From the NCBI GenBank assembly GCA_001938485.1, contig MQRK01179601.1, positions 1 to 60,645 of the forward strand: a stretch of DNA of 60,645 bases, written 5' to 3'. Of the stretch, positions 11,049 through 60,645 are shown piece after piece. Position numbers and translations under genes: made by a program. The DNA is from Girardia tigrina. Lineage: Eukaryota. How positions within the stretch are numbered: the stretch's first letter is position 1; each line of letters starts with the position of its first letter. The notes under the pieces were generated by a model. The model ran no database searches and had not been told where the DNA came from. It worked only from the letters and a program-made list of their open reading frames with translations.

Positions 11049-11085
<37 letters not shown>

Positions 11086-11290: not shown

Positions 11291-11329
<39 letters not shown>

Positions 11330-11422: not shown

Positions 11423-11425
<3 letters not shown>

Positions 11426-24999: not shown

Positions 25000-26214
25000 T
25001 CCAAAGTTAGGCAGATGGTTATAATTGAATGAACTCCCGAAATTGAAGTCAATTTTGAAAAGACTTGAAGGTAAAGGTGCAATTATTGATCAAGAAACAC
25101 GTTTGGGTATTACATATGCAATGGCACATCGATTACTCGAATTAAGAAGCTAATTTTTTTATATGGCAAATCCGAAACTTGTATTAACAGAAGGTTAATT
25201 ATCAGAAATTTTGAAGATAGAAATTGTGCTGCGTCATCCATACCATTTGACTAAAATGTTACAAGCTGAGGATTTAACTCGTAGAAAATTCCTTAAGGAA
25301 TGGAAAAATTTAATACATAAATTATACAAAATTGGAGGACCATCGGATGCAAATGCATAAGACCAAACAATGCAACGGATACTATTAAATGAAGATCAGT
25401 TATTAAGAGGTAAAGAATTTATATTCGATATCACATGTCAAATAAAAATTGTACCATTAAAAAATTAAGATAGTTTAAAGGATTCATTATTATCAACAGA
25501 CTCATTGTCAGATGATAATTGTGATTTAGATAAATTTTTAGATATACAAAACTGTTTGAAATGTCGTCGTTTAGATATTACTGCACCGGTTAATGAATAA
25601 AATAAAGGAAATATGAAGGAAAAATTTTCAGAAATATTTAAAGAAATAGAAAAATATGCCATATCATCTAAGGTGAAGATACAAGAAGCGATTCGTCATT
25701 ATCCTGATGAAGTACAAGATATCGCTAATTTGTTATCAGTGTTGCCTCCGAAACAGGTAAGCGTGGAACGCTTATTTTTAGCTTTAAAAATTATAAAATC
25801 AGATTTACGGGATTCTATTAAGTAGGGTTTACATAGATGCAATTCTGTTTTTAAAGACCAATTTGTAATGATTTACTTTCATAAAAATTTGTCTTTAAGA
25901 ATAAATAAATATTTAGATGATTGTATAACATTAAGTTTTGTTATTTTTAGTGCATATAAAAACATAATATGAATTACGATAAATTAATCAATTTTATTAA
26001 ATGTTATACATTTATATATTTTTGTACCTCGAAAGTTAATTATTAGATCTTTTTTTCTTTTTTACGCTTCTGTTTAATTAAAAATAACTGAAAAATTAGC
26101 CGACAGTATATATATATATATAAATTGACCTAAAAAGGAATCGGAGTCGGAGTCGGAAATTTTAAATGTATAGGAGTTGGAGTCGGAAAATTTTAGTCTG
26201 ACTCCGCAGCCCTG
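25000..26214 (+). mobile_element. hAT transposon 3' part (degenerate transposase plus TIR)
   Basis: Dimerisation motif LPPKQVSVERLFLALKIIKSDLR, GGAGTC subterminal repeats, and terminus GACTCCGCAGCCCTG at 26214. Confidence 0.9.
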
Positions 26215-26610
26215 GTTTATGGTAGTTTAAATAGTTTTGATAATTCTTTTCGAATAACAATTATTAATAATTATAACTAGTATTTTCAAAAAAGTAAGAA
26301 ATATTTTATTTAATATAATAAAATATTTGTAAATGGTTTTATATTTTATGAGTTATTTTAAATTGAGAATAAAATTTGATAAAAAGTTTGACTTAACTAT
26401 TTTTAAAATAAAATATTATCATTGAAAATTAAAAAAACAGACAAAACATAATACATTAGTCTAGATTTCTTCCTGAGGCATAATTCATCAACAAAAAAAT
26501 GAATAAATATGTTTTTGCATTTTCGAGATACATATCGCCAAAAAAATCAACTCAAGTGAAAATCATACAAAAATATAATATTTTATTAAAAGAACAAATA
26601 CTTTTCTTTA

Positions 26611-27420
26611 TTTGATCGTCTTGTATGAAATTTGTTTGCATGGTTACAATTAATTCAAATAGTTATAATTTGACAATGAATTAATATTTTGTTTCTCAGT
26701 TTAATAGCAACATATCTTGGTTATTCAACACATCAATAAAAATTAATTAAAATTATTGATAACTTGTTTAGGTTTCAATATTTTGAAAAATATGAAAAAA
26801 ACAGAAATTCGAACTATTATGAAGTACGAGTTCCTACATAGAACTTAAGTATCTAAAATCATTCGAAACATCAACAGTTTATTCGGATACAAGAAATTAA
26901 GCAGCCATATAAAAACAATAAAAATTTAACGAAATGTCATTGAAAATTATCAAGCGATTAAGAGTATTTTCAAGACTTTAAATAATAATAAACACCTTCA
27001 CTTAAAATTGAAAGACTGCCTTTGTGCAGGAGAGGAGACATTTTGAATACAAATAAAAATTACAACAAAAAAAAGCTAAACAGGATTTCAACTTGAAATA
27101 CCGAAACTGCGGTATTTAATCAATATAAATAAAATATTGAAATAAAAACGTCGAGAGTGTATCAAAAAAGATGGCTAGATTGTTTGTCAACAAGACACTT
27201 CATGCTCACAAAATCAGCCCAATGAATTTGTATCATGTATTACGAAATCTGTGTATTAACCAAATGTTTTTGTCTGAGATTATCTGAAAATATAACTTAA
27301 TTCTTTTGAAGACATCGAAAATTGGCGATATGGTTAGACTGCATTTGAATAACTAGATTTCTATAACTGAATTACTGTGGCACATTTGATAGATTCTGAA
27401 GGAAAATACTTTTAACAAAT
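26611..27420 (+). mobile_element. degenerate, internally deleted mariner related to the 17745 copy
   Basis: The 5' region resembles 17750-18000. Reads MKKTEIRTIMKYEFLH...IRNINSLFG, with C-terminal LIDSEGKYF*. Confidence 0.7.
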
Positions 27421-28858
27421 CTTTCTTTCATTTTGAAAACAATAGTATTTTTTTATCTTTGGTGCATCAAAGAATGTAAGATAAATCTATCTTAATTAAT
27501 AAAATTGGATACTATGACTCTCTGATTTGATTCTATCTGTATCTAAGTAGGCTACTTTTGAATATTTTATAATTTTTTATCTAAAAATTATATTTTAGAC
27601 CCATAGCCATTTTAGCGAATTTTCTCATATGAAAAACGTCGTTATTGTATTCGGTATGTCTATATAAATAAATTAAGAGTACTAAATACATTTTACACCA
27701 AATAAACTATATATTTTTTGATAGATCTCATTAATTATTACCGATAAACAAAAATATTTTAAATTAGAAGGCTTAAAAGAGATTTTGAGTCAAAATAATA
27801 GAAATAAAGTTACTGCCTTGAGTTATACAATAGTCTGATTGTCTTACAGTTTATTATTTGAATCTAGATACAATTTCAATTAGTCCATGATAATAAAAAT
27901 TAGTAACAAAAGATTTTGTACAATTTTTATCGTAAAAATATCTTTTACAAAAATTTATTAAAATATTTTATTCTACAAAAAACTGACCCCCGTAGGATAC
28001 TAATGTTTTCATAACTCTAATCCTCATCTTAAATCGGTCACTAGTTTGTCAAAAATATTGAATAATATTTTTCTTGTGACAATTTCTTAAAGTATGTTCT
28101 AATAAACTTCATAATTATAAATTTATTTCCAAAGTAACACCAGTTTTAATAAATGTAGAATATATAAACACATCGGTTCAAAATGACCGTTTAAAGACAT
28201 TTGCACTAATATATACATATGTAATCGATCTAGGGTACATAAACAAATCTCAGCATAATATTCCAATTGCAGTATCATATTATATTATGTTCTATGAGTA
28301 TTGATCAAACGTTTTATAAGTTTCTTAAGATACAAAAACATTTTCGTCATCAATAAAAATCAAAGTTATTGAATCAAAACCAACTCCATTCTTATATTCT
28401 AAAATACGCAATATTATATTATATTATATTATAACGTAATAAAAAAGTATCAAAATAATTATAATAACAAAGTTAAAAAATATTTAATTTTCATAAAAAT
28501 ATTTTATTTTTATTAGAACTGATAGGAAATCTTTATTTCATTCAGGAAAATTCAAAGACTTCCAGCAGTTCCTCAACCAGATCAATTAGCGTTATTATAA
28601 AAAAATTGAACCATTTCACTCAGCGAAAATCCAATAAATCTAAAATTGTTTATGATTTATTTAAAAATTGTTTTTATATCATTTTAAAATATTTAAAAAT
28701 AATATATTAAATTAGAAATATTTAAGAAATGAGTGTGTACACTTACTTTTTATAAAATCTGGATAAAAATAACCTAACGACAAATTTTTGAAATATTTTT
28801 CTAAGATCAGATGTTGCACATTTTTGTCTTGATAACAATTCTGATTTCTGATTATTAA

Positions 28859-29346
28859 CACGTTGACGGACAGTTGCGTCTATAGCCGTCAAGTTCAAGT
28901 TCACTATGTGACATGACGGCAATAGCCGTCCAATACGAAACGGTCGTTTTTAGACACTGCGGCTGTAGCAGCACAAATGTGCATTTACCAGCGTACAAGT
29001 AGAAGCCTAGTGTCATGTTTTCGAAAAAAAATTTAGTATGCAATGTCCTGCACCATGCTTTGAAACATGGCATACCGAAAATAATGTATAATAATTATAA
29101 AATTATAATAAATTTATTTGTCATTTATTTNNNNNNNNNNNNNNNNNNNNNNNNNNNNNNNNNNNNNNNNNNNNNNNNNNNNNNNNNNNNNNNNNNNNNN
29201 NNNNNNNNNNNNNNNNNNNNNNNNNNNNNNNNNNNNAAGTGTATTTAAGCAGAAAGAGTAAAACTATACTTCTAATATTCTAAAAATTACAAAAACATAT
29301 AGTGTCAATTTTCGAATTTCACTTGTTTCTACTGTCCGTCAACGTG
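28859..29346. mobile_element. non-autonomous piggyBac-like element
   Basis: TTAA TSDs flank perfect 15-bp TIRs CACGTTGACGGACAG / CTGTCCGTCAACGTG. Confidence 0.9.
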
Positions 29347-29999
29347 TTAATAACATTAATTGAATTTTCAAAACATTTATTGAGATCACAACTTAAAAAT
29401 AATCTTTATTCAAATTAAATTCAGTTTGTTCAAAATGATCAACAAAATAAAATTTTTGTTCAAAAATAACGAATAAATTTCAATTCCTTTCTCAAATTAA
29501 ATGTAAAAAATTATTGCAAAACATTATTAGATAATTCAATCTTATATTATTAATTTAAGTTATTCAAACATTAAAATCGTTCTCAAAATATACATGAAAA
29601 AATTTCATCAAAACATTCGTGAATTGAAATTGAAATTTTTTTAAATCAAAAAAGTGAATTTGTAATTTCATTTCTGATGATTGGTTAGCCAATCAGAGCA
29701 AGTCATTCGATATTTTTCAAATCCAGTTTATTGCACAATTACTCATCAATCGTACACACTGGCGCAATTGGTTGATCCTCAATATTTTTTCACATTTTTT
29801 ATATTGGCAAAACAATCCCTGTATATTTACTTTTTCAATATTACCCATAAAAATATTTACCTTCCATATTCGACTTTACAACGCTAGAGTTAGTATATCG
29901 TTGACAAAGTCCAACCTCATCCATAAAATATCCAGTTACTTAATGTTTCGGAATTTTAAATAAAAATAAAAAACGAATTATGTTTCCGAAATTACTATT

Positions 30000-32640
30000 T
30001 GAACATCATTGATTTCCTTTAGGCAAAAGAGAAGAAAAGAAAATATCTAGTAAGAATAAAAATTATATGACTTTATGAAACTTTACGTAACTGGATCTCT
30101 CATGGATGAAGTTTATTTATTTCAACGACATGCTAACTCTAGCATTATTTATAAACTCCTCCAAAATGAGGCATCTCAGGAGAAATAAAAATCCATTTCA
30201 ATTTTCATATCTCAATCTTTTTATTGACGTAATAGCAATTACTTCATCAGTACTTTTTGTCAATCCCAAAAAATTCTTACTGTCAGGCTTTGAATTTCTC
30301 AAAGGCTTTAGAACATGAATCCGTGTCAAAACTATTTACCACCTCCAAATGAACTGAACGACCTTGTCTACAGGTAAATAAGCATAAATATTTCTATTGT
30401 CATATATTCTAACTACCTTGAAAAGTTATAAAAGATCCTGAAAATTCACAGCAGAAATCTAAATGTTATTGACGGTGACATCTTTTAAATTATTTCACTC
30501 TTGGTTTCGAACTGTCATCCTACACATTCTTTCTTTACTTCTTTTACCAATCTTCTCGCTCCAATAACCTAAAATCTTATTTTTAACTCACTCAAAAAAT
30601 AATTTGTGTCCCCATAATGATTTTTTTAACACCTAGATGAACAAAATATTTACCGTCCAAATTGTTTGTATTTATTATTAGACCCACACAATTCACAATT
30701 TGTTCTCCGATTTCAAATAAAACCCCATTGATTCTATAAGCATTGCAAAGTGTCTACAGTTCCAAGAGACAATCAAAAAAAATAATAAACACCGATAAAT
30801 TTTCCGAATTCCATCAATTGCTCCTCTCTCTGGCCAGGAAATATTACGTTGAAGGTAAGAAACAACCATCAATATCAGCTTAAATACCATAGTAATTCCA
30901 GTCATTAAAGACCTGTTTGCGAAAACCGATCTCATGAGAAGAATCATGGACAATTATTGACGGTCACGCAGGTTAACCACTCTATCTTGTTATCGCTTTC
31001 GATTAAAAATACTTGCAATAGCGCTTTAAACATTAAATCATTCTCTTCGTAGAGTCAAAATTTCAATTTGAAAAAGATTATCATTCATGATTAAGAGACT
31101 TACTTATATAACTCACCGTTCTGGAATCATCATCATTTATCGTCATATTTAAAAAAAACTAGCACGGTTCTTAGTGTTAAATACACGCGTCTGCATTCTG
31201 GACGTATGATGTTCACCATCATCGTAATTTCTCGATTGTTTCTTTCCTTTTCTCGAACTTTTACTTTTGTTAGAATAAATATGCATCAGCAAATGATACT
31301 TTTTTTATATTCTTCTCTTTTACAGAAGCATTGTTTTAAACAGTTTTTCAGGTATGAAATTTCTTTAAACAGTTAAAGTCCTTTTTCCAACAATACCTCT
31401 TTTCTTTTAATCAAATTCATATTTTAAAAGTCTATATTTTTCTCAAAATGTTCTTGTTAACACAGAAAATATCTATACTTTTTAGAATTCGGTTGAGCAC
31501 CTCGTCATCAAAATCTGTGAGCAAGGTTGTCTTTGGTAGTCACTTTCTATCGATGACAAATTAAATCAATCGTAATTCATTTTTCCTTCTCAAATCTGTT
31601 TCTAATTTCAGGAATTTTAATTATCCCACTATTAAAGAAATATCTTTCTTTTCGTTTTTCAATCGCTCTCGTTCCCACATCAATAATGAATTTTCTGAAA
31701 TTCTTTTTAATAATTCATAATATAGGAGACAGCACTTCAAATCGTTTGATCTGTTCTAATTTTTTAATTTCAAAATTATTTCTTCGTTTGATCTAACATG
31801 ATTCTCCATCTCTTTGATGTCGTCGCTTTTAATCGATGTGAATCTTCAAACTTCTTCTATCAGAGTCTGAAACGTACAATCCCCCCTCCGTATCTCTCTT
31901 ACAGTCTTCTCAATTTTGTCTGAGGGTGTGAGGATCAAATCCAATGTTCTTAATCAGTCGTAAAGATTTTCCGACCAAAAAATAATTCAAATATAAAACT
32001 TTCTCTTCGTCTGAAGCATCTGTATCTTTGACAGTTATTCTGAACGTCATTTTCCAAATTTCTATTTTTTTACGGATCCTTCAAAAGTAAATACCTTCTG
32101 TGAACTGGACTTCCTTAACTTTTCTTTGGCTTAATTTCAGACAAGACATTTGAAAAAGAAGTTTGAATACTCATTGATGCATCTTCTTGAATCAACTCTC
32201 CTTACTTTTCATAATTCTTTTCGATAGTTTATTAATCTTTCTTTAACTCAATGATTTCATCTTTCAAATTATTCTTTACTTCAAGCTCAATCACATTTTC
32301 AAAATATTGAATTACTTCTTCATAAATTTCCTGATAGTTCTCGTCTTTGGATCTGTAAAAGGCTTTTCTTTGATTTCTTCCATAGCCAAGTTTCATGCCC
32401 GTGATATTCTCATCCTTTGGGTCATTTTCCTTTTCAATTCTTTCGTGAATTACTTTTTAAATCTTCTTTGTTCATTTTTCTTTTTAGACGAGGAAGTAAT
32501 TTGATCTGTGAATCATTCTAAATTACAAAATTGAGCAATGTTTTGATGTCATCCAAAGATTTTTCATCAAAGACCACTTTCAGAAATCCTTGTGAAATCC
32601 CTTCTTTTTTATGGACTATTTTTTTCAAATATCTGATTAT
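30000..32640 (-). mobile_element. heavily degenerate Gypsy-like relic (gag, protease, RT start) interrupted by a BEL/Pao fragment
   Basis: Gag-like KVFTFEGS..IEIWKMTF...DEEKVLYLNYFLVGK (~32100-31970), with protease-like and RT-like remnants and many stops. Confidence 0.55.
30400..31000 (-). mobile_element. BEL/Pao RNase H-integrase fragment
   Basis: VFANR, YLQRNISWPE and ELKIRF*VIGARRLVKGVKKECVG match the Pao motifs FVANRV, FL...WP and LRxxFWIxxxRxxVKxVxxxCxxC. Confidence 0.65.
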
Positions 32641-32889
32641 GTTGCTTAGATAATATGGTTTATATTTATTATATATTTTAAATATTTAATTTTATTATAA
32701 ATAAATATATTGTCATTTCTTATGAGATAGCAAGAAAATGGTGGTAGACAGCGAGTGACCAAATTCGATTACATTGCAGCGACCATCTTTAAATGCCAGA
32801 AATCAAGCTCATCAACTCAAATGAGGACCATCACTGTTGAAAGTGGACATCCACGTTCATCCGCCTAAACAACAGTCATCATTTTTAAG

Positions 32890-32967
32890 GTGGGACAACC
32901 ACTCTCTGCTACCAGATGTTCCGCCATATTCGCAGGTTGCCTCAAAGACCAGATGGTAGTAGCAGAG
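32890..32967 (+). CDS. candidate internal exon of an unidentified host gene (GGTTTLCYQMFRHIRRLPQRPDGSSR)
   Basis: tttttaAG|78 bp|GTGAGC; phase 1 joins in frame to 33348-33405. Confidence 0.4.
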
Positions 32968-33347
32968 GTGAGCGTAAGAATCAAGAGATCGAACTAGTTG
33001 TACTAACCCATTTTATTTTTATACTGATTTGAAAATCCAATCAGAATAATTCAAAGTCAAAAAATAATAATTTGAAAACATTTTATTCTTAAATAATTCT
33101 GTCAAAATAATTTTTTGATAATAAAATTGAAAATAACATATAACAGATCATTTTGCACTAATTCAACTTAATTAAAATATAACAGATCGTTTTAATATCA
33201 TTTCAGTTCACAAAAAGTAAATCAGATCGTTTTTTTACAAAAAAATTCAAAAATCGTAGAATTGAAAATTACATTGAAAAAGAAAACAGACACCAAAAAT
33301 CAAAATTTAAAATAAAAATTGTAATTGACATTAATTTTGATTTTTAG

Positions 33348-33405
33348 ATGACTACTCTTCTCAACTACTCGCTCTGATATTGGCCAATCAGCCATCTTTG
33401 TTCAG
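33348..33405 (+). CDS. candidate internal exon (DDYSSQLLALILANQPSLF)
   Basis: Strong acceptor ttttgatttttAG and donor CAG|GTGAGC; GC-richer island within AT-rich DNA. Confidence 0.5.
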
Positions 33406-33614
33406 GTGAGCAATTTTCATTTTACCTTTGTTCATATTTGAACAAAATTCAAATTATAAATTTGAATAATTTTTATCTTTTTTACTTAAGTTAATTTTCC
33501 TTTCTTATTGTTATCCATTTAAAATAAAATGAGTAGTTCCAATTCTAAGATTTATCAATTATAACAAAATATTCATAATCTCGACTATTTAATGGGGAAA
33601 ATAGTGATGTTATA

Positions 33615-34030
33615 CAGGGTTTAACCTCTCATTTCGTAATAGAGGAAACGTCATTTTGTAACTGAGGAAATGCCATTTGGTAATAAAAAAAAGTTAAATT
33701 ATTCATTTATAAACTGCATAAAATTTCAACATAAAATAAAAGTCAGAATACTTGATATAAAATTTTTATTTATCAGTAATTATTTCCGAACTTAGACATT
33801 TTGGCAAAAATTTCATCATATAGCTATAATAACCATTGCAATTCACCTCACTTATTAGGATTGTAACATTCCACCTACTATTCAAAACTTGCTCTTCATT
33901 ATTAGGACGAGATTTTGCAACTAGTAATTTCCACTTTGCAAACATTTTCTCAATAGGATTCACCCCATTAATAATCGCACTTTCAGCAGACTGCATTTGT
34001 GCATTGAAAATAATAGGATAAAAGTTCATC
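33615..34030 (-). mobile_element. Tc1-like 3'-end fragment
   Basis: Reads NPIEKMFAKWKLLV...CNGYYSYM. Terminus TA-CAGGGTTT resembles that of the 19884 element. Confidence 0.82.
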
Positions 34031-35726
34031 AATTTGATTACAGCACATGTTTCTCTTCACTTCTAAAGTGATTTATGAATTCGCGTGCATTCAAAACTCA
34101 GAAAGTAATAGTGAATTATGATATGAACTATATTGTCTTTGATACACTATTTAGGAAAATAAGCAAGTTTATTAGCAGGATTCCTAGAGTAATCAATCAA
34201 CTGATCTTAATTCTAAACCTAGAACATCATTTATTTCAGCACAAATTAACAAATATTAGTATAGTCACTATATCGTATAGTATAGTCACTATACTATAGT
34301 GTATATCTACTTCACGGTAGTTTGACCCACAATTAATTTAATTGATATTCACCTTGAAGAAACATGTTATTAAAAACTATTATTTATTTTTATTTAAGTT
34401 ATATAAATCCATAATTCTAAAATTTTATTATAAAAATATAAATAAATTTTGACAATTCTTTTCTTAATAAAAATAAACCTCAAAAAACTAAATTTCAATT
34501 GAAATTATAATGATAAATAATTCTCTTCATATATTTCTGGAAAAAAATTAAATTATTTCTTTATACAAATTACTGATCAAAATCTTTGCTGTTTATTTTA
34601 AAAATTATCTCAACAACAAATTTATTGCAAAATTAAAATAAATATTTTAAAAAATTTAAAGAAATATATTTTTTTCATAATTTTACACTTCATTTATATT
34701 TAATTTTTTTATCAATTTATATCTCAGTAAAAAAATTAATTTTTTCATTAAAAATACAATTAATTTATTTAAATGAAAAAAAATTTAAAAAATCAATAAA
34801 TTTTTAAAATTAAATAAAAAATAATTTGACTTAAAAAGGGAAAAATATATTTTTTTTAATTTATAGAAGATAATGCAAATTATTTGGGGAAAAAATAATG
34901 ATGAGGCCATAGTTTAGACATCTGCGATTCTTTTTTTACGACTTTATTAAAAAGAACATAATAAACAAAAGCTGAGACTTGATCTAAAAATTAATTTAAT
35001 ATTTAATTTTAAATGAAATTAAAAATACATTAATTTTCTTTCTCAGACGATGTTTGCTGTTTGCTTAAATTTATATTTAATTGAATAAACATGTTTTTTG
35101 TTTGAATTTAAAGAGTTTTGCTATTATTTTAATAAGTTTTAATTAATAAAATAGACAAAATACTGAAATAATTATTTTTTAATATATAAATTTACCATTT
35201 CTTTAGAAATAATTATGTGCTTTTAACAACCTGATTTTATTTTATACATTTATAATTAAAATTTTAAATATTTTGTGTTATTTAAGAATATTAATTCGAT
35301 TTATAATGGACATTTGTTGGCATCTGTTAAATGCGACTGGTTTTAAAATTAAGTCTATGTATTATTTTAATACATTAATTATTTTCTACCAAAATAATTG
35401 AATATTGTTGCAAAAAATGTAAGACAAATTTTTCTGTTTTCACGAAATTTTTATTGTGTTGTCTTTGATACTTTTATATAGTCTTGTTATGTAAGTTTTA
35501 TAATAAAAATACCTCCCAAACAGTTTGCATATAAAAGAATATAATTTTATATTTTATTAAATAAACACACACATATATATATATAACATTTAGACTTAAT
35601 GACAATTAAATCATAACTAGTAAATCAAAAAACATTTATTTTCATATCCATCCTTTATGCGAACAGAACTCTACTTGGCCAACACATTTTTTTTGTTATA
35701 TTTGGTAGACGGTAAAATTACTATTA

Positions 35727-37002
35727 TTAGGTTGTTCGATATGAAACGGGTCAAAATTAAAGTAAAATGTAAATCGATTTTTTTTAAATAATAACATTTT
35801 ATTTTTAATCAAAATATCCCCCCATGTTGTCAACACACTGTTGCCATTTCAATGGTAACACATTTAACCCTTTAGTATAAAACACTGATTCACGAGAGTC
35901 AATGAATTCTTGAAAGGCCGTTTTCACAGCCCCCGAAGAAATGAAATTTTTTCCACGACAAGAAGTTGTCCAAGCTTTGGAAAAAGTGGTAGTCCGTGGG
36001 TGCGAGATCCGGTGAATATGGTGGGTGGCGAAGAGTTTCGAGACCCACCTGCTGTAGCTTTGCCACAGTATTTTTTGCCGAATGAGGGCGAGCGTTATCG
36101 TGCAATAAAATTGGAGTCAATCTATTGAACATTTTCGGCTGCTTAATGGCAAGTTTTTCCATCATATNNNNNNNNNNNNNNNNNNNNNNNNNNNNNNNNN
36201 NNNNNNNNNNNNNNNNNNNNNNNNNNNNNNNNNNNNNNNNNNNNNNNNNNNNNNNNNNNNNNNNNNNNNNNNNNNNNNNNNNNNNNNNNNNNNNNNNNNN
36301 NNNNNNNNNNNNNNNNNNNNNNNNNNNNNNNNNNNNNNNNNNNNNNNNNNNNNNNNNNNNNNNNNNNNNNNNNNNNNNNNNNNNNNNNNNNNNNNNNNNN
36401 NNNNNNNNNNNNNNNNNNNNNNNNNNNNNNNNNNNNNNNNNNNNNNNNNNNNNNNNNNNNNNNNNNNNNNNNNNNNNNNNNNNNNNNNNNNNNNNNNNNN
36501 NNNNNNNNNNNNNNNNNNNNNNNNNNNNNNNNNNNNNNNNNNNNNNNNNNNNNNNNNNNNNNNNNNNNNNNNNNNNNNNNNNNNNNNNNNNNNNNNNNNN
36601 NNNNNNNNNNNNNNNNNNNNNNNNNNNNNNNNNNNNNNNNNNNNNNNNNNNNNNNNNNNNNNNNNNNNNNNNNNNNNNNNNNNNNNNNNNNNNNNNNNNN
36701 NNNNNNNNNNNNNNNNNNNNNNNNNNNNNNNNNNNNNNNNNNNNNNNNNNNNNNNNNNNNNNNNNNNNNNNNNNNNNNNNNNNNNNNNNNNNNNNNNNNN
36801 ACTGATTTCCATTGCGCTGTTTGATTGTTTGTTGACAAGAAACTATTCAATATATTTGAAATTAAATAATTGATTTTTAAAGAGGAATAATATATCTGTC
36901 AAGAAATACCTTATTTATTCTCATACGATAGTTCAAAGTTAAGTTATACGCGATTGAAATGTAAGGTGTGAAGTTTGACCCGTTTCATATCGAACAACCT
37001 AA
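35727..37002 (-). mobile_element. young full-length mariner (DD34D), middle in an N gap, frameshift near the C-terminus
   Basis: Perfect 29-bp TIRs TTAGGTTGTTCGATATGAAACGGGTCAAA with TA TSDs; ATG at 36812; motifs LLHDNARPH and HPPYSPDLAPTDYHFF. Confidence 0.97.
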
Positions 37003-37241
37003 TACATTCTTAATAAATTAGTTGCGTTATTAGTAACCATTTAAATATTTTGTAGAAGGGTCAATTTCATACGAAAAATTTTTATAACTCCATTTTGCAA
37101 TTAAATAGTTACTAACAACATAATAAATTTTTTTATAAAACTAAAACATTTATATTTAATACAGTTTAAACATTCGTGGATAATCGTAAAAAGTTATTTT
37201 GCAAAAAGATTTCTTTGATTTACTAGTTTGATCAAATTTTC

Positions 37242-37474
37242 CAGGGCTGTGGAGTCGGAATAAAATTGCCAGACTCCGACTCCAACTCATTTATTTTTAA
37301 AATGTCCGACTCCAACTCCGACTTCGACTCAGCCTACGACTCCATTTCTGACTCCGACTCCTTTTTAGGTCAATTTATAATATTTGTTATTATTTTGGTC
37401 AAAATCGAGTTACACGACTCCGACTTCCCAAAAAATCCTTAAAATCCGACTCCGACTCCGACTCCGCAGCCTTG
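37242..37474. mobile_element. hAT-derived MITE with GACTCC repeats
   Basis: CAGGGCTGTGGAGTC...GACTCCGCAGCCTTG with a perfect 8-bp TSD AAATTTTC. Confidence 0.95.
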
Positions 37475-37543
37475 AAATTTTCAAATAATCATTTATTGTT
37501 TTCGAAAATGAGTAAATGTGCAAAGTTTGGAGAAAATTGATTG

Positions 37544-38475
37544 AGGAAAAAGCCTTCAAAAATAGATTACTAAATTATATGGATACACATGCATATATAC
37601 CTGTACAGAAAGTAAGTTATTAAAAAGAATGGTAAAAGTAAAGAAAATACACCATTTATATATTTTTTATTGTTTTAATGATGTTTTGCTATTACTGCAT
37701 CATCAGTTGTGGAAGAATTTCAGACTATAAGTAGCATATTGACTATTGTGTAATTAATCTCCTTTTTTATTTAAAAAAATTTTAATGTAATAGGTCCTAT
37801 TAACTAATAGAAAAAAGTGAAAATTCTCTGACGGTTAATTTGAGAACACCAAATTTTGATGAGAACAAAGATGTAGATGAAATATTTTAGTCCACTCTCA
37901 TATTGGTGGATTTACCTGCATCACTATGGGCCCGGACGCGGTCGTGACGAAATCAAACATTAATCTTAAAGAAACATTTTGACACATCATGTGAAAATAT
38001 TCAATGAGGCATTATTAATAAAGCATTAAAACCGTGCTTAAATTTCTAAAGTGAATTTTGCAGTAATAGCAAAGCATCATTAAAACAATAAAAAATATAT
38101 AAATGGTGTATTTTCTTTACTTTTACCATTCTTTTTAATAACTTACTTTCTGTACAGGTATATATGCATGTGTATCCATATAATTTAGTAATCTATTTTT
38201 GAAGGCTTTTTCCTTAAATAGGACAATTAACTTTAGAAATTTAAGCACGGTTTTAATGCTTTATTAATAATGCCTCATTGAATATTTTCACATGATGTGT
38301 CAAAATGTTTCTTTAAGATTAATGTTTGATTTCGTCACGACCGCGTCCGGGCCCATAGGGATGCAGGTAAATCCACCAATATGAGAGTGGACTAAAAGTT
38401 TTCATCTACATCTTTGTTCTCATCAAAATTTGGTGTTCTCAAATTAACGTCAGAGAATTTTCACTTTTTTCTATT
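37544..38475. repeat. interleaved inverted repeats: A (37544-37699), B (37806-38052), A' (38059-38214), B' (38230-38475)
   Basis: Near-identical reverse complements of 156 bp and ~247 bp, with a few substitutions and a 1-bp indel. Confidence 0.95.
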
Positions 38476-38930
38476 CGATAATTAAACCATGATCTCCACC
38501 ACATAAACCAATGGACTTTGAACGAAGATTCCAGTATACAAGAATTTCAAACAATGGTATATCCATTGTATCATTAATACTAGCACTCAAAATAATTTTT
38601 TCTACTGAAACAAATTCTTTTACGTCCTTATGTCTTATCTTTCAGATGATTCAAGAACATTGATTTAACGAACTCTGAGACAGTTGTTTCATTATTATAA
38701 GAATTTTAAGTCTTGAAAGAATTAGAAAACTTTTCATACTGATTAAAATAATTTTCTAACCAAATACGGCAAACATTATCCCTACTACATATCATTAATG
38801 AATTGTTAATTGAATTCAGAGGCACTAAAGAATTGATGTCTCCGTTCAAAACTAATGATGCTTGATAGGTGTTTAATAATAATATATTCGAATAATTCAA
38901 TTGACAGAGATTTGATGGTTCTTATAAATA
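38230..38930 (-). pseudogene. DMXL: DmX-like / Rabconnectin-3alpha (Rav1 family) N-terminal WD40 region, pseudogene fragment
   Basis: Across frameshifts it reads FEYIIIKHLSSIISFERR, LVPLNSINNSLMICSRDNVCRIWLE, ILSASINDTMDIPLF, FKVHW and STLIL-W. These are colinear with the DMXL motifs, recalled from memory, YLAHP..V..FSWR, N.LLT...DNVCRLW.E, AASINPATDIP, FVVHWL and SELILW. Confidence 0.78.
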
Positions 38931-39479
38931 TTCAGACAGAATTTTATCACATTAATTTTTTTCGAAAGCACTATTTATTAAATAATATCAAACAATTCCA
39001 AAATTCACGAGCAAATTAATTTTTATTATTAAAACAACTTTTTTACAATATTAAAACAAACGATATTTTTTAACACTAAGAATTTTCCAAATACAACAAA
39101 AACATTAAATAATTTTTTTTATCGATTTTCAACAAAAATACAAGAAACAATTTGTCGAGTACAGAAATTATTTTTTTTGAAAAAATAATTAATAATATCA
39201 ATACAAAAAATAACAATGACGAATAGTTTTCATCTTCATGTTAAAAATTAACATATTCTTTTCTTAAAACAAGTAACAACAAAACTTTTTTTACAAAAAA
39301 ACTTTCTCAATAATTTAATATATATTTTCTTTTTAATCGATCTGGAACAAAGACAGTAAATTCAGTTTTATAGGTTACTTTATCACTTTTTCTTTATTTT
39401 TAATGTGATCGAGAATCGAGCTATTTTTACTCAATTAGGTGTGTTAAAAATAAAAACAATAAATTCAAAATCTCTATTT

Positions 39480-39730
39480 TCTGAAGGTGTGTGTGATTTG
39501 AAAAAAAGTTTAATTAAGATGGTTCCCTCGGGTTTTAACTTCCGCCGATTTTCAGAACTAATAAACTGTCTAGATATTTTTCAAATAAAACAAAAACTCC
39601 ATTAGGTATCCTAGATAATCTAGTATATCAATTTAAATGTCACAAGTGTGAATTCATATACAGTGGAGGAGCAAATCGTCATCTTCGCACTAGAATAGCA
39701 GAACACAGCCGATTGAATATGAACAAATAA
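39480..39730 (+). mobile_element. Penelope GIY-YIG fragment
   Basis: Reads TPLGILDNLVYQFKCHKCEFIYSGGANRHLRTRIAEHS. Confidence 0.85.
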
Positions 39731-41234
39731 TTTTATATTATTATTTCTCAAATTTTGTTTCTTGAAACTTAAACGTAAAAACAAAAATTACTCAATGTGG
39801 CAATAAACTTGAATTGACCGGTATCTTTCAGTTATGTAGATAAAAATTAAAAGCTACCAAGACAACAACTTTTATAAACTAATCAAGTCTCATTTAATAT
39901 ATTAATTCAAGCGAAATTTATAATGAATGATACTCACATATTGAGATGCCCCCATAATTAGATCAAATTTTCAAAAACGAATTATTGTAATAATTTGTTT
40001 CCCTTTAATTTACTTGGATAACTGTCCTTAAATATCTTTTAATGTTGCTAGTACACTCTTGCTCACTAATGTTTCTATTTATTTACATTATTTAATGGTT
40101 AAAAATTTATTTTGTCTTATTTTGTTAAATTATTTTTAGAATTTATCAATTCTATTAAATAATAAACACAGATTCTTATGCAAAATCTTTTGCTCTTTTT
40201 ACTTCCCTTTTAAAAAAATTTTAAATCAACAACTTCTAAATTCTCTAATCGTACGAAGGATCGACCGGATCCGATTAAGATTTGATCTAGTCTTTTTGCT
40301 TTAATATATTTAAATGATCATGGAACTTGGTTTTGTTTGATATTTTAAAAGGGCTAATTGAAACATATGTTTCTGTGAACTCTTTTAATGACTAATATGG
40401 ATTAATCAAAATATAAGAAATAAATTTTAATATAACGATCTACTTAATAAAATAATGTACCAACAAGCAGATATACATACATGAAGAATGATGGATTTGA
40501 ATATCAACAAGTTCTGCGAGACTTTTTTGGAACGACAAATGATTGTTATTGCCATGGGATTAGTTCGATCAAACTCAAGAGAGATTCTTGGGATAAGATT
40601 TAGTTGTTGAGTTTTGTGGAATTTTTGTTGTTGAGAAACGGTCGATAGCAGTGAGTGAGAATGAAATTCAGTGAATTGAGAACGAAAATTACTGTTGTTG
40701 AATTGTTTTTATCTCAAGATACACTGTTGACAGTTTTATAATTCCATGGTAAACATCCTTTGGAAACCGAGATAAATGAGAAAATTGATAAACCAACACA
40801 AAGATATCCGAATAAAATGTTTCCAAATAGCATTAATTAATTAATATTTATTAATTTATAATTTATATATAATTATATTATAGACATATTTAATTATATA
40901 TATTGTAAATATGTTACTGACCGTAGGTCACTACAATTATTAATTTCGTTATCAATCAAAAACCAAGCATATAATACAATTTTTACGAACGATTTCTTCA
41001 TCATTTAATTGATCTTTATGTCGATTTCAGCTCGATCAGTGAGACTCAATTCAAGTTCCATGAAATGATCATAACAAATGATATTTTTAAAAAAACTATC
41101 TACTATTTTTTTATTTTTAAATCAAGAAAACAATTCACCGAAACACTTATCTTTTTAAATTTCCCTTGCGGCGAAAATTTGTTTCTGGAATTTTCGTATT
41201 AATTTTTTTAAAATTTTTATAAATTAGTATCTTT

Positions 41235-41500
41235 ACCGAAACAATAGAAGAGACAATCAAAAAAAGTAAGCTGAAATTCTACGGACATCTGATAAGAAAA
41301 CAAGCATTATCAAAGGTTATGATTGAAGGAAGAGTGGAACGAGAAAGACCAAAGAGACAAGAGACAGACGACTTAAAAGAATGAAGTGGATTGAACATGG
41401 AATGTCTAAGAAGAGAGGCTATAAATAGAAAGATGTGGCGAAGGTTTGTTTATAATCGGGTGCACCCACAGACTTATGGCTAAGGTCCAACAGAAGAAAA
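41235..41500 (+). mobile_element. RTE-clade LINE 3' fragment
   Basis: Reads KLKFYGHLIRK...IEGRVE...DDLKE*SG...EAINRKMWR, and ends in a short GAA-like tail. Confidence 0.85.
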
Positions 41501-41813
41501 ATATATCTTTTAAAACGCGTCTTAGTTTGAATTTTGATAGTAATTGGATTTATATAAAATTTTCGTAATATTTTAAATTTTGTACGGATGTAACGTGTTT
41601 ATTTGAGTGTGATGAAATTGGAATTATGATGCTTGTGAAGGCCATGGTATTTACAATAACTGATCATTCAATTAGAATTTACATTTTTAAAATTAATGAC
41701 AATTTAATAATTTGATAAATTTTAAATAGTAATAATACATGGTTCTTTCTATAATAAGTTATATTTTTCAAAATATGAGATAAACATGCTAATGTTTTAA
41801 TTAAAGATTTTAG

Positions 41814-52116: not shown

Positions 52117-52720
52117 ATTATTTTATGCTGAATTCACGAACTCGACAATTTTTTTAAAATTTTTTTAATTCAATTATGAAATTGATATTAATATTTAATA
52201 TGAAAAAAATATGCATTTAATATGAAAGATTATCTATTTAATAGGAAAAAATTTCAATTCAATATGAAAAAATATCGATTTAAGAAGAAAACTATGTATT
52301 TAATACGAAAAAATATCAATTTAAAATGAAAAATATCATTTTACTATGATAAAATACTTTTAAAATACAAGCGTTTGCAATTCAGCTTGCCACCAAGGAA
52401 GACGTTTTATTAACTATGAATAAAAATTTTACAGTTGGAGTCTATTTCGCATAATAAATTAAGATATTTTTCCTATTTAATTTAATTTTTCATATTAAAT
52501 CGATAATTTTTCATATTAAATACATAATCTTTCATTTTAAATTGAGAAATTTTCATTTTAAATTAAAATTTTTCAGATAGTAAGTGAATTTGGCAAAAAA
52601 TGACTAGTACATGAATTGGGAATTACCCTATTTAAGCAAACTGTTGCCGAATTCACGAACTCAGCAAAAAAGTTTAAAAATTCGTGCATTCGGCAATTAC
52701 GCAAATTCAGCATAACAATG
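52117..52720. mobile_element. foldback/MITE with inverted arrays of ~21-bp AT-rich repeats
   Basis: TATGCTGAATT / AATTCAGCATA ends; ATTTAATATGAAAAA-type units at 52190-52350 are mirrored at 52470-52580. Confidence 0.6.
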
Positions 52721-54246: not shown

Positions 54247-55275
54247 GATCTATGTACTCGGCGAACTTTTGGGGATTTCGAAAGCCGAAAGGATCAGGAT
54301 GGATGAGATATTAATTGGATGCAAAGCCCAATGGATATCATCGCTCGGAGAAGAATCATACACAATACCAAGGTCGATTTAGGAGAATGCCCGGAGAACG
54401 TCAAGCAGACCAGTGGATGCGAACTCATCGGAGGAAAGAAGATCAGCGGTCGGAGAAAGCAACATCTGGTAGAATGTCTCAGAGTGGATGCTCACTGGCG
54501 CTTTGGAGCCGAGTACAGTTTCAGTGAATTTAAAAGAGACGTTCTGCAGGAAAACTTACTGAAGATGGATGGGAAAGATCGAGAAAGTATTCCGACTGAA
54601 GAGAATCCAAAGAAGCGGGACGAGCAAACACTAAGACTGGTGCTACCGCGTCTGAAAGAACACAGCTGCCAAATGGATGCCTGTCAAAAACAATATGTGG
54701 AAGTGAAGGAGTTAAACAGGCATCTCAGAAGAGATCACGAAGGAGCAGAGCCAATCCCGCGGAAGAAGAGAGAGAAGAAAGCCCAGCCACATCAGAAGAA
54801 AGGAAAATATCAATGTCAACACTGCCCGAGGGAATACAAGGCCGCTGGTTTCCTAAGGATTCATATTCAGAAGAATCATCAAGAAACGCGAACATCCAAC
54901 GCCCAGAGAGAAGAAAACTTGGAAGAAGAGTACGAGGAAGAGCCGACATCAAACCAATCCAATCCTCAGTTGCCGGACGTAATTGTGAGTATGCCAAGGA
55001 TACAGCCGAACGACGATGCCGAAAAGAGACGAACCTACAATACCGACTGCCAGCCGATTACAAGACTGCAAGAGGACAATTTAAATGCCCGTTTCGCGGT
55101 TGTTAGCGTCCACCGTAACAGCCAACGGCATGTACGGCCATGGCAAGCCGACTGCTCAGAGGCAGAAGGCCACTGACTCCGTAGGAGGCCTATCGGGGGG
55201 CCATTAGGACTTTAGTTTGGGTGGACCCTCTAAAGAGCCTTAGGCTCAATACCATTACAGAGATTGGAGGCCCAC
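54247..55275 (+). mobile_element. 5'-truncated RTE-like LINE with two C-terminal C2H2 zinc fingers
   Basis: 10-bp TSD ACATCGGAGA (54237-54246 and 55276-55285). RTE post-RT motifs LLGIS...DEIL, IIARRR and ELIGGKK..GRRK; fingers CQMDAC...LNRHLRRDH and CQHC...LRIHIQKNH. Confidence 0.85.
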
Positions 55276-55683
55276 ACATCGGAGAAACAAATCGTCATCT
55301 CAAAACCCGGATTAGTGAGCACTCGCAAATGAGTCGATCGAGTAAAGTTCTTGATCATTGGTTATGTTGTAAGGATAGAGCCTCATCCATTTCAATAGAT
55401 GAGTTTTCTGTTCTACAAAAGGGTTTTGATTCACATTACGAACGACAGTTTTGTGAATCTCTACTAATAGGACACTACAACTCATCAATTAACATTCAGA
55501 ATGGCCAAAGTAAGGTTATTTCAATACTTAAAATTTTTAATTAAAATATTCTTTTTGCCATTATTACCCAATAATACTTTGATAAATAATTATAATTATT
55601 TTTTGGTTACATTTTAAAGTAAATATATCTATTAAAATTGTATTATTGAAACAATTCAATATTCATATACTAAATATCCGAAA

Positions 55684-55769: not shown

Positions 55770-56750
55770 ATAGGCGTAACCAGGGTACTTTGCGCCATGG
55801 AGCAAACTATAATATTGGCGCCCCGCCTCCATGCTTGTGTTTATTTTCTATTGCATTAACATAGAAAATAACCTTACTGTATACGGAAAAACAATTTAAA
55901 TTTTAATGGAACATTGTATTTAAAGAAGAAACAATGGTAAACAAATACAAGCATTTATTTATTTACAAAGTCTACAATAGATTTATTTTTCTTGATTTCA
56001 CGGTCGCAAACTGGTCAATCACGTCATCGAAATCTGTTGTTTCCAATGTTTCTCTTTCAAGTTTAGGAAGAGCAAAATCCCTGAGACAATCCTGTACCAT
56101 TGATAAACGGAGATACGACAAACTAAGTCTAAATTTGGAGAACGACCGCTCAGAGCTTGCAAATGAAACTGCTATTGTTAACAAAATTTGTAGTGAAATT
56201 CGCAGATTCGGAAATACGTCATTTCCATAAAACACAATAAAACCAAGATGATTTAAAAGAGTTTCTGGTAGAGCTTCAGTTCGGTTACTGAGCAACAATC
56301 TGCAATTACAAATTTAGATGAAAAGTTCGTAGCCATTGATGTCCGAGTCGTAGAAATTTGCAAATTCTGCACAAATTAGACAAATTGCATCATCATCTAT
56401 GAAAATAGAAGAGTTTTCACATCCAGAAAAAAATCCAAATTTATTGTTCAGATCTTTTAGTCGTGAAAAACGTGTTGATATCTCATGTTGAAGCCGATCA
56501 AATACATTCTTCATAACGCGCACAATTTCTTCTGATGAAAGTCCTGTATGTCTTGCCAGTTCTCCAGACATTCTCTTACATCGTCTGATTCTTCTGTCCA
56601 CCTCATTTGGAAAATTATTTGTTTAAGTTTATTATTTATTAAAATAATTTTATTAAAGATTGCAACAGTTTTATCAAAGATTACGATCGTTTTATTAATG
56701 GTTTCAGGACTTTTACTAAAGATCGAAAAACAATAAATAACAAATGGATG
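55770..56750 (-). mobile_element. hAT (Tip100/ZMYM1-like) transposon 3' part
   Basis: Reads FPNLRISLQILLTIAVSFASSERSFSKF...DFDDVIDQFATVKSRK; terminal GGCGTAACCAGG...GGCGCCCC region. Confidence 0.92.
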
Positions 56751-57483: not shown

Positions 57484-58640
57484 TTATGTAAACCGCCAAA
57501 AATAATCTCCAATGTTTTCATTCATTGATAATTTATTGCTGATGGTCATGGTAACCGATTCTTCATATTCTTCTTCAATGTTATTCACGAATCTCCGATT
57601 ATCTCCTGTTCCTCTGTCTTCTCTTTCTCTATATCTTTGTTGATTGTAGCCCACTCCTCGATAGTTATTGTCCCCTGTATTTTGTTGTCTTCTTCTGCCA
57701 TTAAGGTTTGTATAACATTCACTTTCACTGTGCCCTTTATCTTGACATCTTTTGCATTCGATGTTTGGACAGTTTCTTCTTACGTGTCCCTGTTTTCCAC
57801 AACCATAACATTTTATTGGTCTCCTTTCCGAACAATTTCTTATCATGTGTCCTTCTTTTCCACATCCGAAACACTTGATTGGTTTTCTTTGTCTACACGT
57901 TTCACTTGTGTGACCTACTTTTTCACAATTTCTACATTTAACCACTTTCATGCCTTGAGCGTATTATGTAGTATTTCAACCAACCCCTGTCTGATTTTGT
58001 CCGTATTTACTGTCTCCTGTTACTGCTTCTCTGTAGCTCCGGCGTCTGTTTCGCATCCTCTGGTCTCTTACTACATTCACGTCTTCTGTCACACTTTTGA
58101 TGTCATGTACTGCCTTTATCTTTTCTTTTATCTCATCTATTCCTTTAACTTTGTTAAGTCTCACTTCTTTTTTTATGTCCACATCATCACAACAATGTAA
58201 CAATAATGCTTCCGTGAGGGCGTCTTTTGACAAGTCATGTTTCAAGATCTTGGCTGCGAGCTTTTCTACTTTCTCAAAAAATACTTCCGGTATATCTTCC
58301 TTCATCCTGTACCGGCATGCCTCAGCCAGGTCTTCGAATAGTGAGGAAGTTCGAGAGAATGCCTTTCTCAATCGGTCTTTATAACCTTGTCTTATCTACC
58401 GCTTTGTATCGATCTTTCAGATCTCTGTCCTACAAACAAACGACTATTGTCTCTTGTTTGGCCTTCGATATTCCTGCAAAATTAAAGAATGTTTCACATT
58501 CTTCAATAAATGTCTCCACATTATCGCCTTTCCTGTACTTTTCAGGTAACAGTTGACCCGTGAAGATATCCATTGCAGCGTTAGTCGCCATGTGAGAAGT
58601 GGTTGCAACCTCTATATCAGAATTCAGGCGAAATAAAAAT
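57484..58640 (-). mobile_element. gag: Gypsy 5' fragment: LTR end, PBS (TGGCGAC) and degenerate gag with four CCHC knuckles
   Basis: CACA-TGGCGAC at 58594-58584, then MATNAAMDIFTGQLLPEKYRKGDNVETFIEEC. Knuckles are CRNCEKVGH, CFGCGKEGH, CYGCGKQGH and CKRCQDKGH; stops and frameshifts are present. Confidence 0.92.
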
Positions 58641-59163
58641 TTAAATTAACCCCTCATATAATTAATGATCATTTTAATTTTTATCCAATAAGTTTTGAGT
58701 AAATATTCTAATAAATTATTTATTCCTCCGTTTGCTAAAAATAATAAGAATTAATTCATTATTCTATTTAGTTGGAATGTACAAGTACAAAGCTTTGATA
58801 AAGATTGTCTTAAGAACAATCAAACTTGTTGTGTAAATAAAAATATGAAAAATCAAATCGGTGTTCTTAATAAGACTGAAACACAAATAAGATATATTTT
58901 TATGGAAAGTAAAGATTTTCAACATATTTAATTTTTTTGGAATGTAAATGTCGAATTTAATGAGTGGTTTAAGCTAAAAGATTTATTTTTTTTGAAATGG
59001 AATTCTTTTAATGTTAATCGGAAGATATTTTGTATGATTTAAAAAAATATTCTTATACTTCTTTTAAAATTATATATACCTTATTTTGCAAAAAAATATT
59101 TATGTCTTAAGATTTTTTATTTCTACAGTTCATAATTAATTACAAAAACTGGATAATTTAAAA

Positions 59164-59235
59164 CAGGAGTGTCCAACACATATTATCTTACGGGCCTCTT
59201 TGAAAACAATCATAACTCAGCGGACCACATTTAAA
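59164..59235 (+). mobile_element. hAT-like terminal sequence (single end)
   Basis: CAGGAGTGTCCAAC...GGGCC...GCGGACCACA resembles Buster/Charlie-type ends; no partner end in the window. Confidence 0.45.
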
Positions 59236-59344
59236 ATTATATATCTTCTTTCACTGTTCAATTTCATAACACAAATTCCCAATCACAAATTTTGGCCTAA
59301 AGAGGGCCGTATGTCTTTCTCCTTAGATTTGTATCTCTGGAGTT

Positions 59345-59710
59345 TAGTCTCGCAACAGTTTCACTCCCACCTGGATCTCTCTGCTTTTGAAAGGATAGAA
59401 CAAATAGGTCTGACATAGTTTACCGACGTCCAATAAATAGACCCAAGCCATATCATCATAGATTTCAATTATTTCCTCCCGCAAGAAACAGTGCGGTCGG
59501 ACCATTGCGACACAGATTTACCGCCACAGGTCTCGGTAAAAGAGAAGTGTTGTCACAACTGGCGTTATCGATGTTCATTTCTTTTTGCATTGTGTTGAAT
59601 GTTTTGATTTGTTCTGGATCGTAGATTCGTAATTTAATATTTTGTATTGATGACATGTCGACAATCTCGATTTTACTTTTCTTGGATTTTCTTTCTTCTT
59701 TTACATACAT
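59345..59710 (-). pseudogene. extended Tudor domain relic (frameshifted)
   Basis: Reads IEIVDMSSIQNIKLRI...MQKEMN...LLPRPVA, frameshift at ~59520, then ICVAMVRPHCFLREEIIEIYDDMAWVYLLDVGK. This fits the Tudor pattern P..G..C.A.....xRxxI......V.xxDxG. Confidence 0.65.
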
Positions 59711-59722
59711 TTTACGATCGTT

Positions 59723-59841
59723 TTTGAAGAAGAAAAACGATAACACAACTCCCATTCCGGCATCGACAAGTGTTTTAATGAAACCATCCGACAGATAACG
59801 ATCGACTTTCATTTCAATTCCTCATCGGTTTTAGAAACCAT
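59723..59841 (-). pseudogene. MICOS10: Mic10 (MICOS10/MINOS1) N-terminal fragment including TM1
   Basis: MVSKTDEEL, 1-bp frameshift, MKVDRYLSDGFIKTLVDAGMGVVLSFFFFK aligns without gaps to Mic10 ELGRKWDRCLADAVVKIGTGFGLGIVFSLTFFK (recalled from memory). Confidence 0.78.
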
Positions 59842-59985
59842 AATACAATCGCAATTCGTTTTATTAGAAAATAAAACCAAAGATTCTTTTTTATCGATTT
59901 CCAAAAAAACTTTATTAGTTATCAAATCATATTACAATAATTCGTTTAAACAAACGAATTCCAGTAAACAATTTTTAAATTTTTA

Positions 59986-59991
<6 letters not shown>

Positions 59992-60028
<37 letters not shown>
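59992..60028. repeat. (TA)n microsatellite
   Basis: Direct observation. Confidence 0.95.
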
Positions 60029-60034
<6 letters not shown>

Positions 60035-60645
60035 ACAATTATTTATTTTTTTTCTAAACCTTTTTTAATAAATAATTTTTGCTTTTTTAATTTGGTTCAA
60101 TAAATTTAATATTATTTAACATCATATTAGATTTTAACCCACTACAGATATTTTTGGAGTGAAAAATGAAACATAATGGGTTTCTATTAACTCTGCAATC
60201 TTAAAAATGTTTTTATTAATTTTAAAATAATCCTTATCCATTCTATCTTGAATCAGGCTGGTACCGTACATAGACGCACAATATTGTTTCAATGATAAAA
60301 AAGTAAATGTTATAAAAAATGGATCCTGGTCTTAGAGAAAAAATTTTTTCATTATATATTTCCAGACAATATGTGCTATTAATTTAAGTTTAATAATCTG
60401 CAAAAATTTCCTAAAAGTTCTCTTGTATCAAGAATATTGAAAATTTTTATAACGCCTTCTCTTCTAAGGCCTTTTAATCCTAGATTTCTAAATAAAATGT
60501 GATACAATTTTTTTAATCTAATTATGTATGTGAGGAGAATTATTATCGAAATTAATAATTGTATGTTGTGTAATTTATGTATGGAATGTTTGAGGTGTGA
60601 TCTTTGTATTGTTGTGTAATAGGTCACGACCGAAATAGTGTGTAT

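Follow-up and report, generated by a model that had tools for sequence, protein, structure and literature searches.

Results

A block of host-gene pieces splits a hAT-like miniature element

The window analyzed here (60,645 nucleotides of Girardia tigrina DNA, contig MQRK01179601.1 of assembly GCA_001938485.1) contains a chimeric, minus-strand block that splits a hAT-like miniature element and joins pieces from at least three donors, namely Mic10, a Tudor gene, and an H2B-like histone with its mRNA hairpin, plus a K/E-rich piece (Table 1). All identified pieces of the block lie in sense orientation. The locus is probably one degenerate copy in a repeat family that is multi-copy and non-autonomous and was assembled from host-transcript pieces by transposon-type shuffling like that of Pack-TIRs. 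This agrees with one of two readings offered by an initial annotation made from the sequence alone, shuffling of captured host fragments by transposable elements, and rests on the multi-copy state of the pieces, the number of donors, ten-base overlaps at the joints, the position inside a hAT-like element that also has an empty form, and the absence of Mic10 from the intact Tudor donor transcript.

Table 1. Features of the block and of the hAT-like element around it (window coordinates).
Feature	Position	Strand	Remarks
Eight bases left of the hAT-like end	59156..59163	+	T at position 4, A at position 5; fits nnnTAnnn
hAT-like miniature element, left arm	59164..59248	+	Terminal repeat from 59164
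Interrupting block, 875 bp	59249..60123	-	X1 contigs skip from 59248 to 60124-type sequence
Histone-mRNA-type 3' hairpin	59293..59311	-	One base short in the window copy
Histone-H2B-like fragment, 11 codons	59352..59385	-	In frame with Tudor
Extended-Tudor fragment, ~98 codons	59376..59665	-	5-base deletion near 59518
K/E-rich linker	59656..59712	-	Own ATG at 59710; 10-base overlap with Tudor start
Mic10 N-terminus and first transmembrane helix	59713..59841	-	DUF543 match; ATG at 59841
Putative Mic10 5' UTR and 5' edge of high-copy core	59842..59883	-	Contig ends and depth fall
AT-rich upstream flank	59884..60123	-	13% GC; lower copy; depth over 59896-59960
Resumed hAT-like element	60124..60645	+	Demonstrated for 60124-60153 only

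Contigs from four runs were compared with positions 59140-59960 at 80% likeness; none spans that stretch. X1 is a DNA run, the RNA label of X3 and X6 is a guess, and X9 carries no label. Counts of pieces, joints, and differences refer to those listed for each run, and summed depth does not equal copy number, serving only as a rough guide.

The initial annotation had placed a hAT-like end just downstream of the chimera. The end is real and multi-copy: its terminus at 59164 matches exactly a pattern that we take to describe hAT ends, and a variant of this terminus, with 4 differences per 30 bases, occurs in 34 X1 contigs. The end is not merely adjacent, however, because the block interrupts the element, which resumes at 60124. 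Among the joints listed, 20 X1 contigs depart from the window at 59248, and the sequence that follows in them equals 28 of the 30 bases of 60124-60153. Since these contigs lack the block, the window copy is a hAT-like element with the block inside it. The eight bases outside the terminus agree with the target consensus of Buster-type elements (PMC3517528). Neither a partner terminal repeat nor a target duplication was found within the window, nor was a second copy of the block.

The upstream flank of the block includes an (AT)21 run at 59986-60028 and has an X1 depth of 1,237-4,588 over 59896-59960, the depths covering the window up to 59960. Depth at both outer flanks, 1,237-4,694, only hints at cargo-bearing copies at several sites. 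The window is AT-rich (19-39% GC per 2 kb) with assembly gaps. A solo LTR with TGTT at 59255 and AACA at 60121 was considered and rejected: its flanks agree at only 3 of 4 positions, a primer site is lacking, and the edges in depth fall elsewhere.

The block begins with a Mic10 start and first helix

The open reading frame described earlier at 59465..59812 exists on the minus strand (stop to stop 59465..59821, ATG at 59812), and its Mic10-like segment has a borderline profile match. Its first 37 residues (residues 3-39) matched DUF543 (Mic10/MINOS1) with an E-value of 1.3e-4 and 22.2 bits, just below the cut-off of 24.1, over model positions 19-53 of 75, so that the match is to a fragment. The ATG of this frame is not the Mic10 start; the true start at 59841 is severed from the frame of the window copy by a one-base loss near 59814, and the missing base is present in X1 and X3 contigs. 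The best 19-residue hydropathy value of the Mic10 piece is 1.72.

Mic10 is an inner-membrane hairpin protein with two helices and a glycine motif in each, and cysteine- and glycine-type residues matter for targeting and assembly of the fly protein (PMC10803214). The second helix is missing from the block. Where the helix-1 motif should have its first glycine, the window copy has Asp, as does about half of the X1 depth; among the codons restored by DNA or RNA variants, the cysteine codon is carried by 16% of X1 depth and the glycine codon by 49%. To judge from these sequences, the conserved motifs of Mic10 appear eroded in the family.

Upstream of the ATG, three X3 contigs end at 59881, and the X1 depth, 37,460 at 59840-59867, is down to 1,237 at 59896-59923; the stretch between the ATG and this edge is likely the Mic10 5' UTR. 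Protein searches recovered neither a Mic10 donor protein nor a Mic10-Tudor fusion, which is weak evidence given the coverage of those searches.

The Mic10 segment does not run straight into the Tudor sequence, as the initial annotation had it: a third piece of ~55 bases (~59712-59656) lies between them, Tudor homology starting at 59665. This linker has no Pfam match. Twelve X1 contigs among the joints listed depart from the window at 59656 with a different continuation, and the linker is among the deepest X1 bins (summed depth 60,037). Read-through from Mic10, or a Mic10 splice junction, was rejected as the origin of the chimera on the grounds that a third sequence follows Mic10 and that, in the related genomic locus L001, the Tudor joint is internal to an exon.

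The Tudor piece probably derives from a spliced transcript that lacks Mic10

The Tudor assignment stands by way of relatives; the TUDOR profile does not match the window's own Tudor pieces. A search of 1.84 billion proteins gave two matches, of which one, P0001, is real, and the other, P0002, was discarded as a low-complexity chance match. P0001 is 69-72% identical to the window Tudor pieces (tblastn E-value 8e-36) and aligns with two window frames, one at 59668-59516 and the other at 59517-59368, separated by a 5-base gap, which confirms the suspected frameshift at ~59520 as a 5-base deletion. Later protein searches added only P0003 and P0004, and both agree with the Tudor reading; scores against TUDOR (PF00567) were 29.9 bits for P0001, 29.3 for P0003, and 23.4 for P0004, with a cut-off of 23. 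Identity between the window Tudor and its relatives is 65-73% over 96 columns. On a profile of three relatives, the window pieces, read through with X, scored 165.5 bits, and 500 shuffles reached no more than 10.5. In the ESM Atlas, P0001 lay at 0.95 to Tudor clusters, and its structure neighbors included KH-Tudor proteins among many other Tudor classes. The homology stops at 59376, and the sequence beyond it is histone-like rather than further Tudor.

Other searches were less telling. The window frame gave only bacterial matches below 0.9 in the ESM Atlas; a word-based protein search with it gave two candidates and no match, a worthless blank because P0001, with which it has several exact words in common, was missed too. 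PDB sequence searches returned nothing useful, and pattern scans of viral and prokaryotic collections gave 0 matches.

None of the four intact relatives (P0001, P0003, P0004, and L001) has Mic10. Contigs of X6 and X9 are ~96% identical to the window Tudor (11-12 differences, and the 5-base gap), and Tudor contigs of X6, X9, and X3 leave the window precisely at 59665 and 59376, with loose ends that translate to the residues flanking the domain in P0003 and that are likewise free of Mic10. Because these contigs extend as Tudor protein on both sides, the donor is a Tudor transcript that is intact, apparently spliced, and devoid of Mic10, and the window chimera is therefore no relic of the host gene itself. 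The domain is truncated at both ends in the block, the donor continuing on either side. Family variants carry in-frame deletions of 39, 78, 120, and 177 bases through it. Five window-private Tudor changes, among the differences listed, comprise three replacement and two silent ones, from which a dN/dS ratio would not be informative.

L001 has small introns on either side of its Tudor exon. The exon before it (839-1037) looks KH-like by eye, and the donor might be AKAP1-like. Pfam and PDB searches found no KH domain in this upstream exon (L001:840-1037); its single-sequence model has a pLDDT of 57, and the best Z in a fold search was 3.9. The model of P0003 (pLDDT 33) was unusable. Within the block, profile search found no KH domain. 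The donor family is very divergent, only four relatives having been found, and in all four an aliphatic-Gly-Lys sequence follows the Asp of the Tudor core, unlike the form of the methyl-arginine cage of Tudor domains.

The block ends with a histone-type piece and hairpin

Contigs that match only 59352-59385 extend as H2B-like sequence in both directions, and these extensions equal human H2B at 22 of 30 residues in a hand comparison (sequence from PMC11347383). The H2B-like piece of the window alone has no Pfam or PDB histone match. With 8 changes per 30 residues relative to human H2B, the donor is strongly divergent, and it is deep in X3, a run guessed to be RNA; it is either a histone variant specific to the lineage or a family of decayed copies.

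Forty bases beyond this piece lies a hairpin with the conserved 6-bp stem and 4-base loop of the histone mRNA 3' hairpin. Fifteen contiguous bases equal the C. elegans histone hairpin as given in Table 1 of PMC1924863, and the identity grows to 19 bases with the base at 59295 that is found in contigs of all four runs; 200 shuffles reached at most 9 bases. Rfam made no hairpin call in the window copy, which is one base short. At a loose end at 59330, four X3 contigs link the hairpin end to another upstream sequence, and the hairpin module may carry further types of cargo.

The pieces are multi-copy and recombine at short overlaps

In X1, 580 contigs fall on 59140-59960. One of them corresponds to the window locus with its left flank, without differences, and its depth of 77.5 provides a unique-flank reference. 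Summed depth is 8,700-11,100 over the hAT-like arm, 2,168-17,141 over Tudor, 25,288-41,519 over Mic10, and 56,005-64,991 over the hairpin (59280-59335). As a rough guide, these depths point to tens of Tudor-bearing copies and hundreds of copies of the core (Mic10 and hairpin). The core is 4-6 times deeper than the hAT-like arm, so that most core copies are not carried by the arm; only the long form of the block may be hAT cargo.

Both Tudor joints are 10-base overlaps (59656-59665 and 59376-59385), a mark of template switching. The Tudor/H2B overlap straddles the intron position seen in L001, and identity with the spliced donor continues for 5 bases beyond that position, bases that the H2B-like piece has as well. 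If the species has the L001 intron, the overlap would fit a spliced source. The 12 joints listed represent rearranged variants, one of which connects the linker directly to the hairpin end. Related sequence is also present in X3, a run labelled as a second organism. Contigs of X3 and of X9 bridge Mic10 and the linker, and two X3 and three X1 contigs join Mic10 in frame to mid-Tudor at 59708/59587; Mic10, linker, and Tudor were not seen together as a transcript in one contig. A single-copy, untranscribed junction, which the initial annotation would have taken as the sign of a dead chimera rather than a gene family, is not what the contigs contain.

The window copy is dead but the family frame tends to stay open

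Four lesions interrupt the window copy: frameshifts near 59814 (1-base loss) and 59518 (5-base loss), and stops at 59346 and 59325. This copy is dead and makes no full-length product. Most of the depth has the intact state at each of the four lesions, which look private to the window copy. With the read-majority base at each position, 194 codons stay open downstream of the start at 59841, a composite and unphased frame that passes through the histone hairpin.

The variants were also counted by frame. Three of the 12 joints listed are one event and one was dropped because it removes the ATG, leaving 9, of which 7 keep the frame. With two further deletions in the pieces listed, 9 of 11 variants of at least 9 bases are in frame (p = 0.0014 at an expected one third, and p = 0.015 at 0.45, the share that 5-base microhomologies would give), a test that was post hoc and used the best-supported rows only. 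Three of the in-frame joints contain filler, and the variants of known length alone give 6 of 8 in frame. When small indels were included the count was 10 of 15 (p = 0.009-0.08), with one more out-of-frame contig omitted. Neutral cargo would not predict this retention of frame together with 194 open codons.

Other elements in the window

A scan of 134 frames gave matches to reverse transcriptase, protease, zinc knuckle, GIY-YIG, DDE, and hAT dimerization domains, and no clear host gene among them. Broken gag-like frames with four zinc knuckles lie on the minus strand at 57484-58645, to the left of the hAT-like end; the 500 bases that separate the two look single-copy, so that the block is not the LTR of that element. 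A second LTR-retroelement relic, with reverse transcriptase and aspartic protease matches, occupies 3-2045 (minus strand). Penelope-like pieces occur at 54307-55544 (plus strand) and 5158-5958 (minus strand), the latter with a GIY-YIG match at 5161-5958, and immediately ahead of a similar-looking frame at 55185 lies one of 289 residues that has two weak C2H2 fingers. A fragment of the C-terminal dimerization region of a hAT transposase lies at 55975-56622 (minus strand), 2.8 kb from the block. Two interleaved long inverted repeats of 224 and 159 bases, 98-99% complementary, at 37541-38448 are either a fold-back structure or an assembly artefact. Inverted arms of 21-base tandem repeats were seen at 19916-21159 and 52167-52590, the first enclosing a Tc1/IS630-like frame, and a GC-richer stretch at 15075-15608 (minus strand) matches DUF7047.

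Discussion

The sequence of events that we favor would start with a short core (Mic10 5' end, linker, and hairpin end), probably the most abundant form. Template switching at microhomologies would later have added the Tudor piece, with spliced mRNA or cDNA as its probable source, and further coding pieces may have been copied in and out in the same manner. The Tudor-bearing form would then have spread as transposon cargo, with hAT the likeliest carrier for the long form. As for the frame that many variants keep open, the most likely cause is either a recent origin or selection to keep the transcript stable and translatable, and not a functioning Tudor protein.

That frame would also fit a young, lineage-specific protein family, in which the Mic10 promoter, start, and helix anchor variable cargo and the window copy is a pseudogene. 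The read-majority frame, the in-frame share of the larger variants, and the contigs that bridge Mic10 to linker and Mic10 to Tudor in frame all favor such a family, and Ssk-FB4 offers a precedent (PMC8277862). We nevertheless regard it as unlikely: the frame test was post hoc and weakens when small indels are counted, deletions in variants remove the Tudor core, at least half of the depth has lost conserved Mic10 residues, the frame crosses the histone hairpin, and no single contig holds Mic10, linker, and Tudor. Similarly doubtful is a family of chimeric genes, confined to this lineage and still evolving, that swaps captured coding pieces (Tudor, H2B-like, K/E-rich) in frame within a mobile cassette with the promoter, start, and first helix of Mic10 at its one end and the histone hairpin at its other. 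If true, it would be an animal exon-shuffling platform making membrane-anchored fusions, possibly dominant-negative on MICOS or on Tudor partners. The least likely gene-based explanation is a decayed, single-copy mitochondrial Tudor gene of the TDRKH/Papi type acting in piRNA processing, close to the second reading of the initial annotation. The order of helix, basic residues, and in-frame Tudor agrees with it, as do the KH-Tudor proteins among the Atlas neighbors of P0001. But the block is multi-copy, has no KH domain, and carries a truncated Tudor whose core is deleted in variants; the donor transcript is without Mic10; and Mic10 sits in the inner membrane (PMC10803214), whereas Papi is described as facing out from the outer membrane (PMC3854531). 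A single gene of this type is largely refuted, and what survives of that reading is that the frame from the Mic10 ATG tends to persist.

Two further explanations concern how the core was mobilized. It could be retroposed and SINE-like, a host reverse transcriptase having copied in trans a chimeric mRNA that reached from the Mic10 start to the hairpin; the hAT-like element would then be no more than the landing site of one copy. The edges of the core are mRNA-like (~40 bases above the ATG and ~15 below the hairpin), its 3' end is deeper than its 5' end, one overlap spans an intron position, and relics of LTR, Penelope-like, and other retroelements abound in the window; the uniform sense orientation is likewise described as a mark of RNA-level chimeras (PMC13174262). 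There is, however, no poly(A) tail, the candidate edges have 4-base direct repeats only, and the window copy has 240 extra upstream bases that are also multi-copy over 59896-59960, all of which make this origin quite improbable. It is very unlikely, in our view, that the core derives from a Helitron or Helentron that took up the promoter and first exon of Mic10, with the histone hairpin as termination signal. The 5' edge of the core has a TC preceded by A (59884-59882) and a GC-rich hairpin lies close to the 3' edge, and there are precedents in the bat HelibatN3, in which a promoter and first exon were amplified to about a thousand copies (PMC4224331), and in a mosquito Helentron with histone fragments (PMC4067079). 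Against this, no CTRR follows the hairpin, and no subterminal inverted repeat of at least 9 bases, as for a Helentron or DINE-1, was found between the core ends; further out there is one AT-rich 10-mer inverted repeat with one mismatch. The probable reading thus remains a repeat family built by transposon-type shuffling.

On present evidence the locus adds no new piRNA or mitochondrial factor. In AKAP1/Spoonbill, a hydrophobic N-terminal helix precedes an extended Tudor domain. TDRKH/Papi (PMC3854531, PMC7072634) shares this order with the block, which differs in lacking KH, in a Tudor cut at both ends, in a helix taken from an inner-membrane protein, and in being multi-copy. Chimeric retrocopies formed by template switching (PMC13174262) resemble the block in their sense pieces, and one joint would fit a spliced source; unlike them, the block has no poly(A), clear target duplication, or LINE piece, and has been amplified secondarily as a family. 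HelibatN3 and other bat Helitrons (PMC4224331, PMC4778049) have, as here, amplified the promoter, 5' UTR, and first coding part of a mitochondrial housekeeping gene, and are described as capturing further gene pieces sequentially, pieces of retrogenes included; in contrast, the block has no CTRR, its hairpin is by sequence that of histone mRNA, and it sits in a hAT-like element.

The closest parallel is with Pack-TIRs such as the multicopy Pack-hAT-N8_XT of the frog and Ssk-FB4 of the fly (PMC8277862), in which host-gene sequence likewise lies inside a terminal-repeat element, and for which an empty form of the element, microhomology at breakpoints, and transcription of some copies are described, as here. 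The same survey reports 370 Pack-TIRs in 100 genomes, mostly single-copy, the median cargo being 224 bases. Among the animals surveyed, it is rare for a gene captured by a DNA transposon to be multi-copy, and the known cases mostly have one donor. Here, by contrast, at least three donors are joined in one sense frame in apparently tens to hundreds of copies. The block thus seems to work like an animal Pack-TIR, its membership in the class being unproven. If this is correct, a family with three to four donors in frame, a 3' end formed by a histone hairpin, and tens to hundreds of copies would be a good natural test of selection for translatable transposon cargo before any function is gained.
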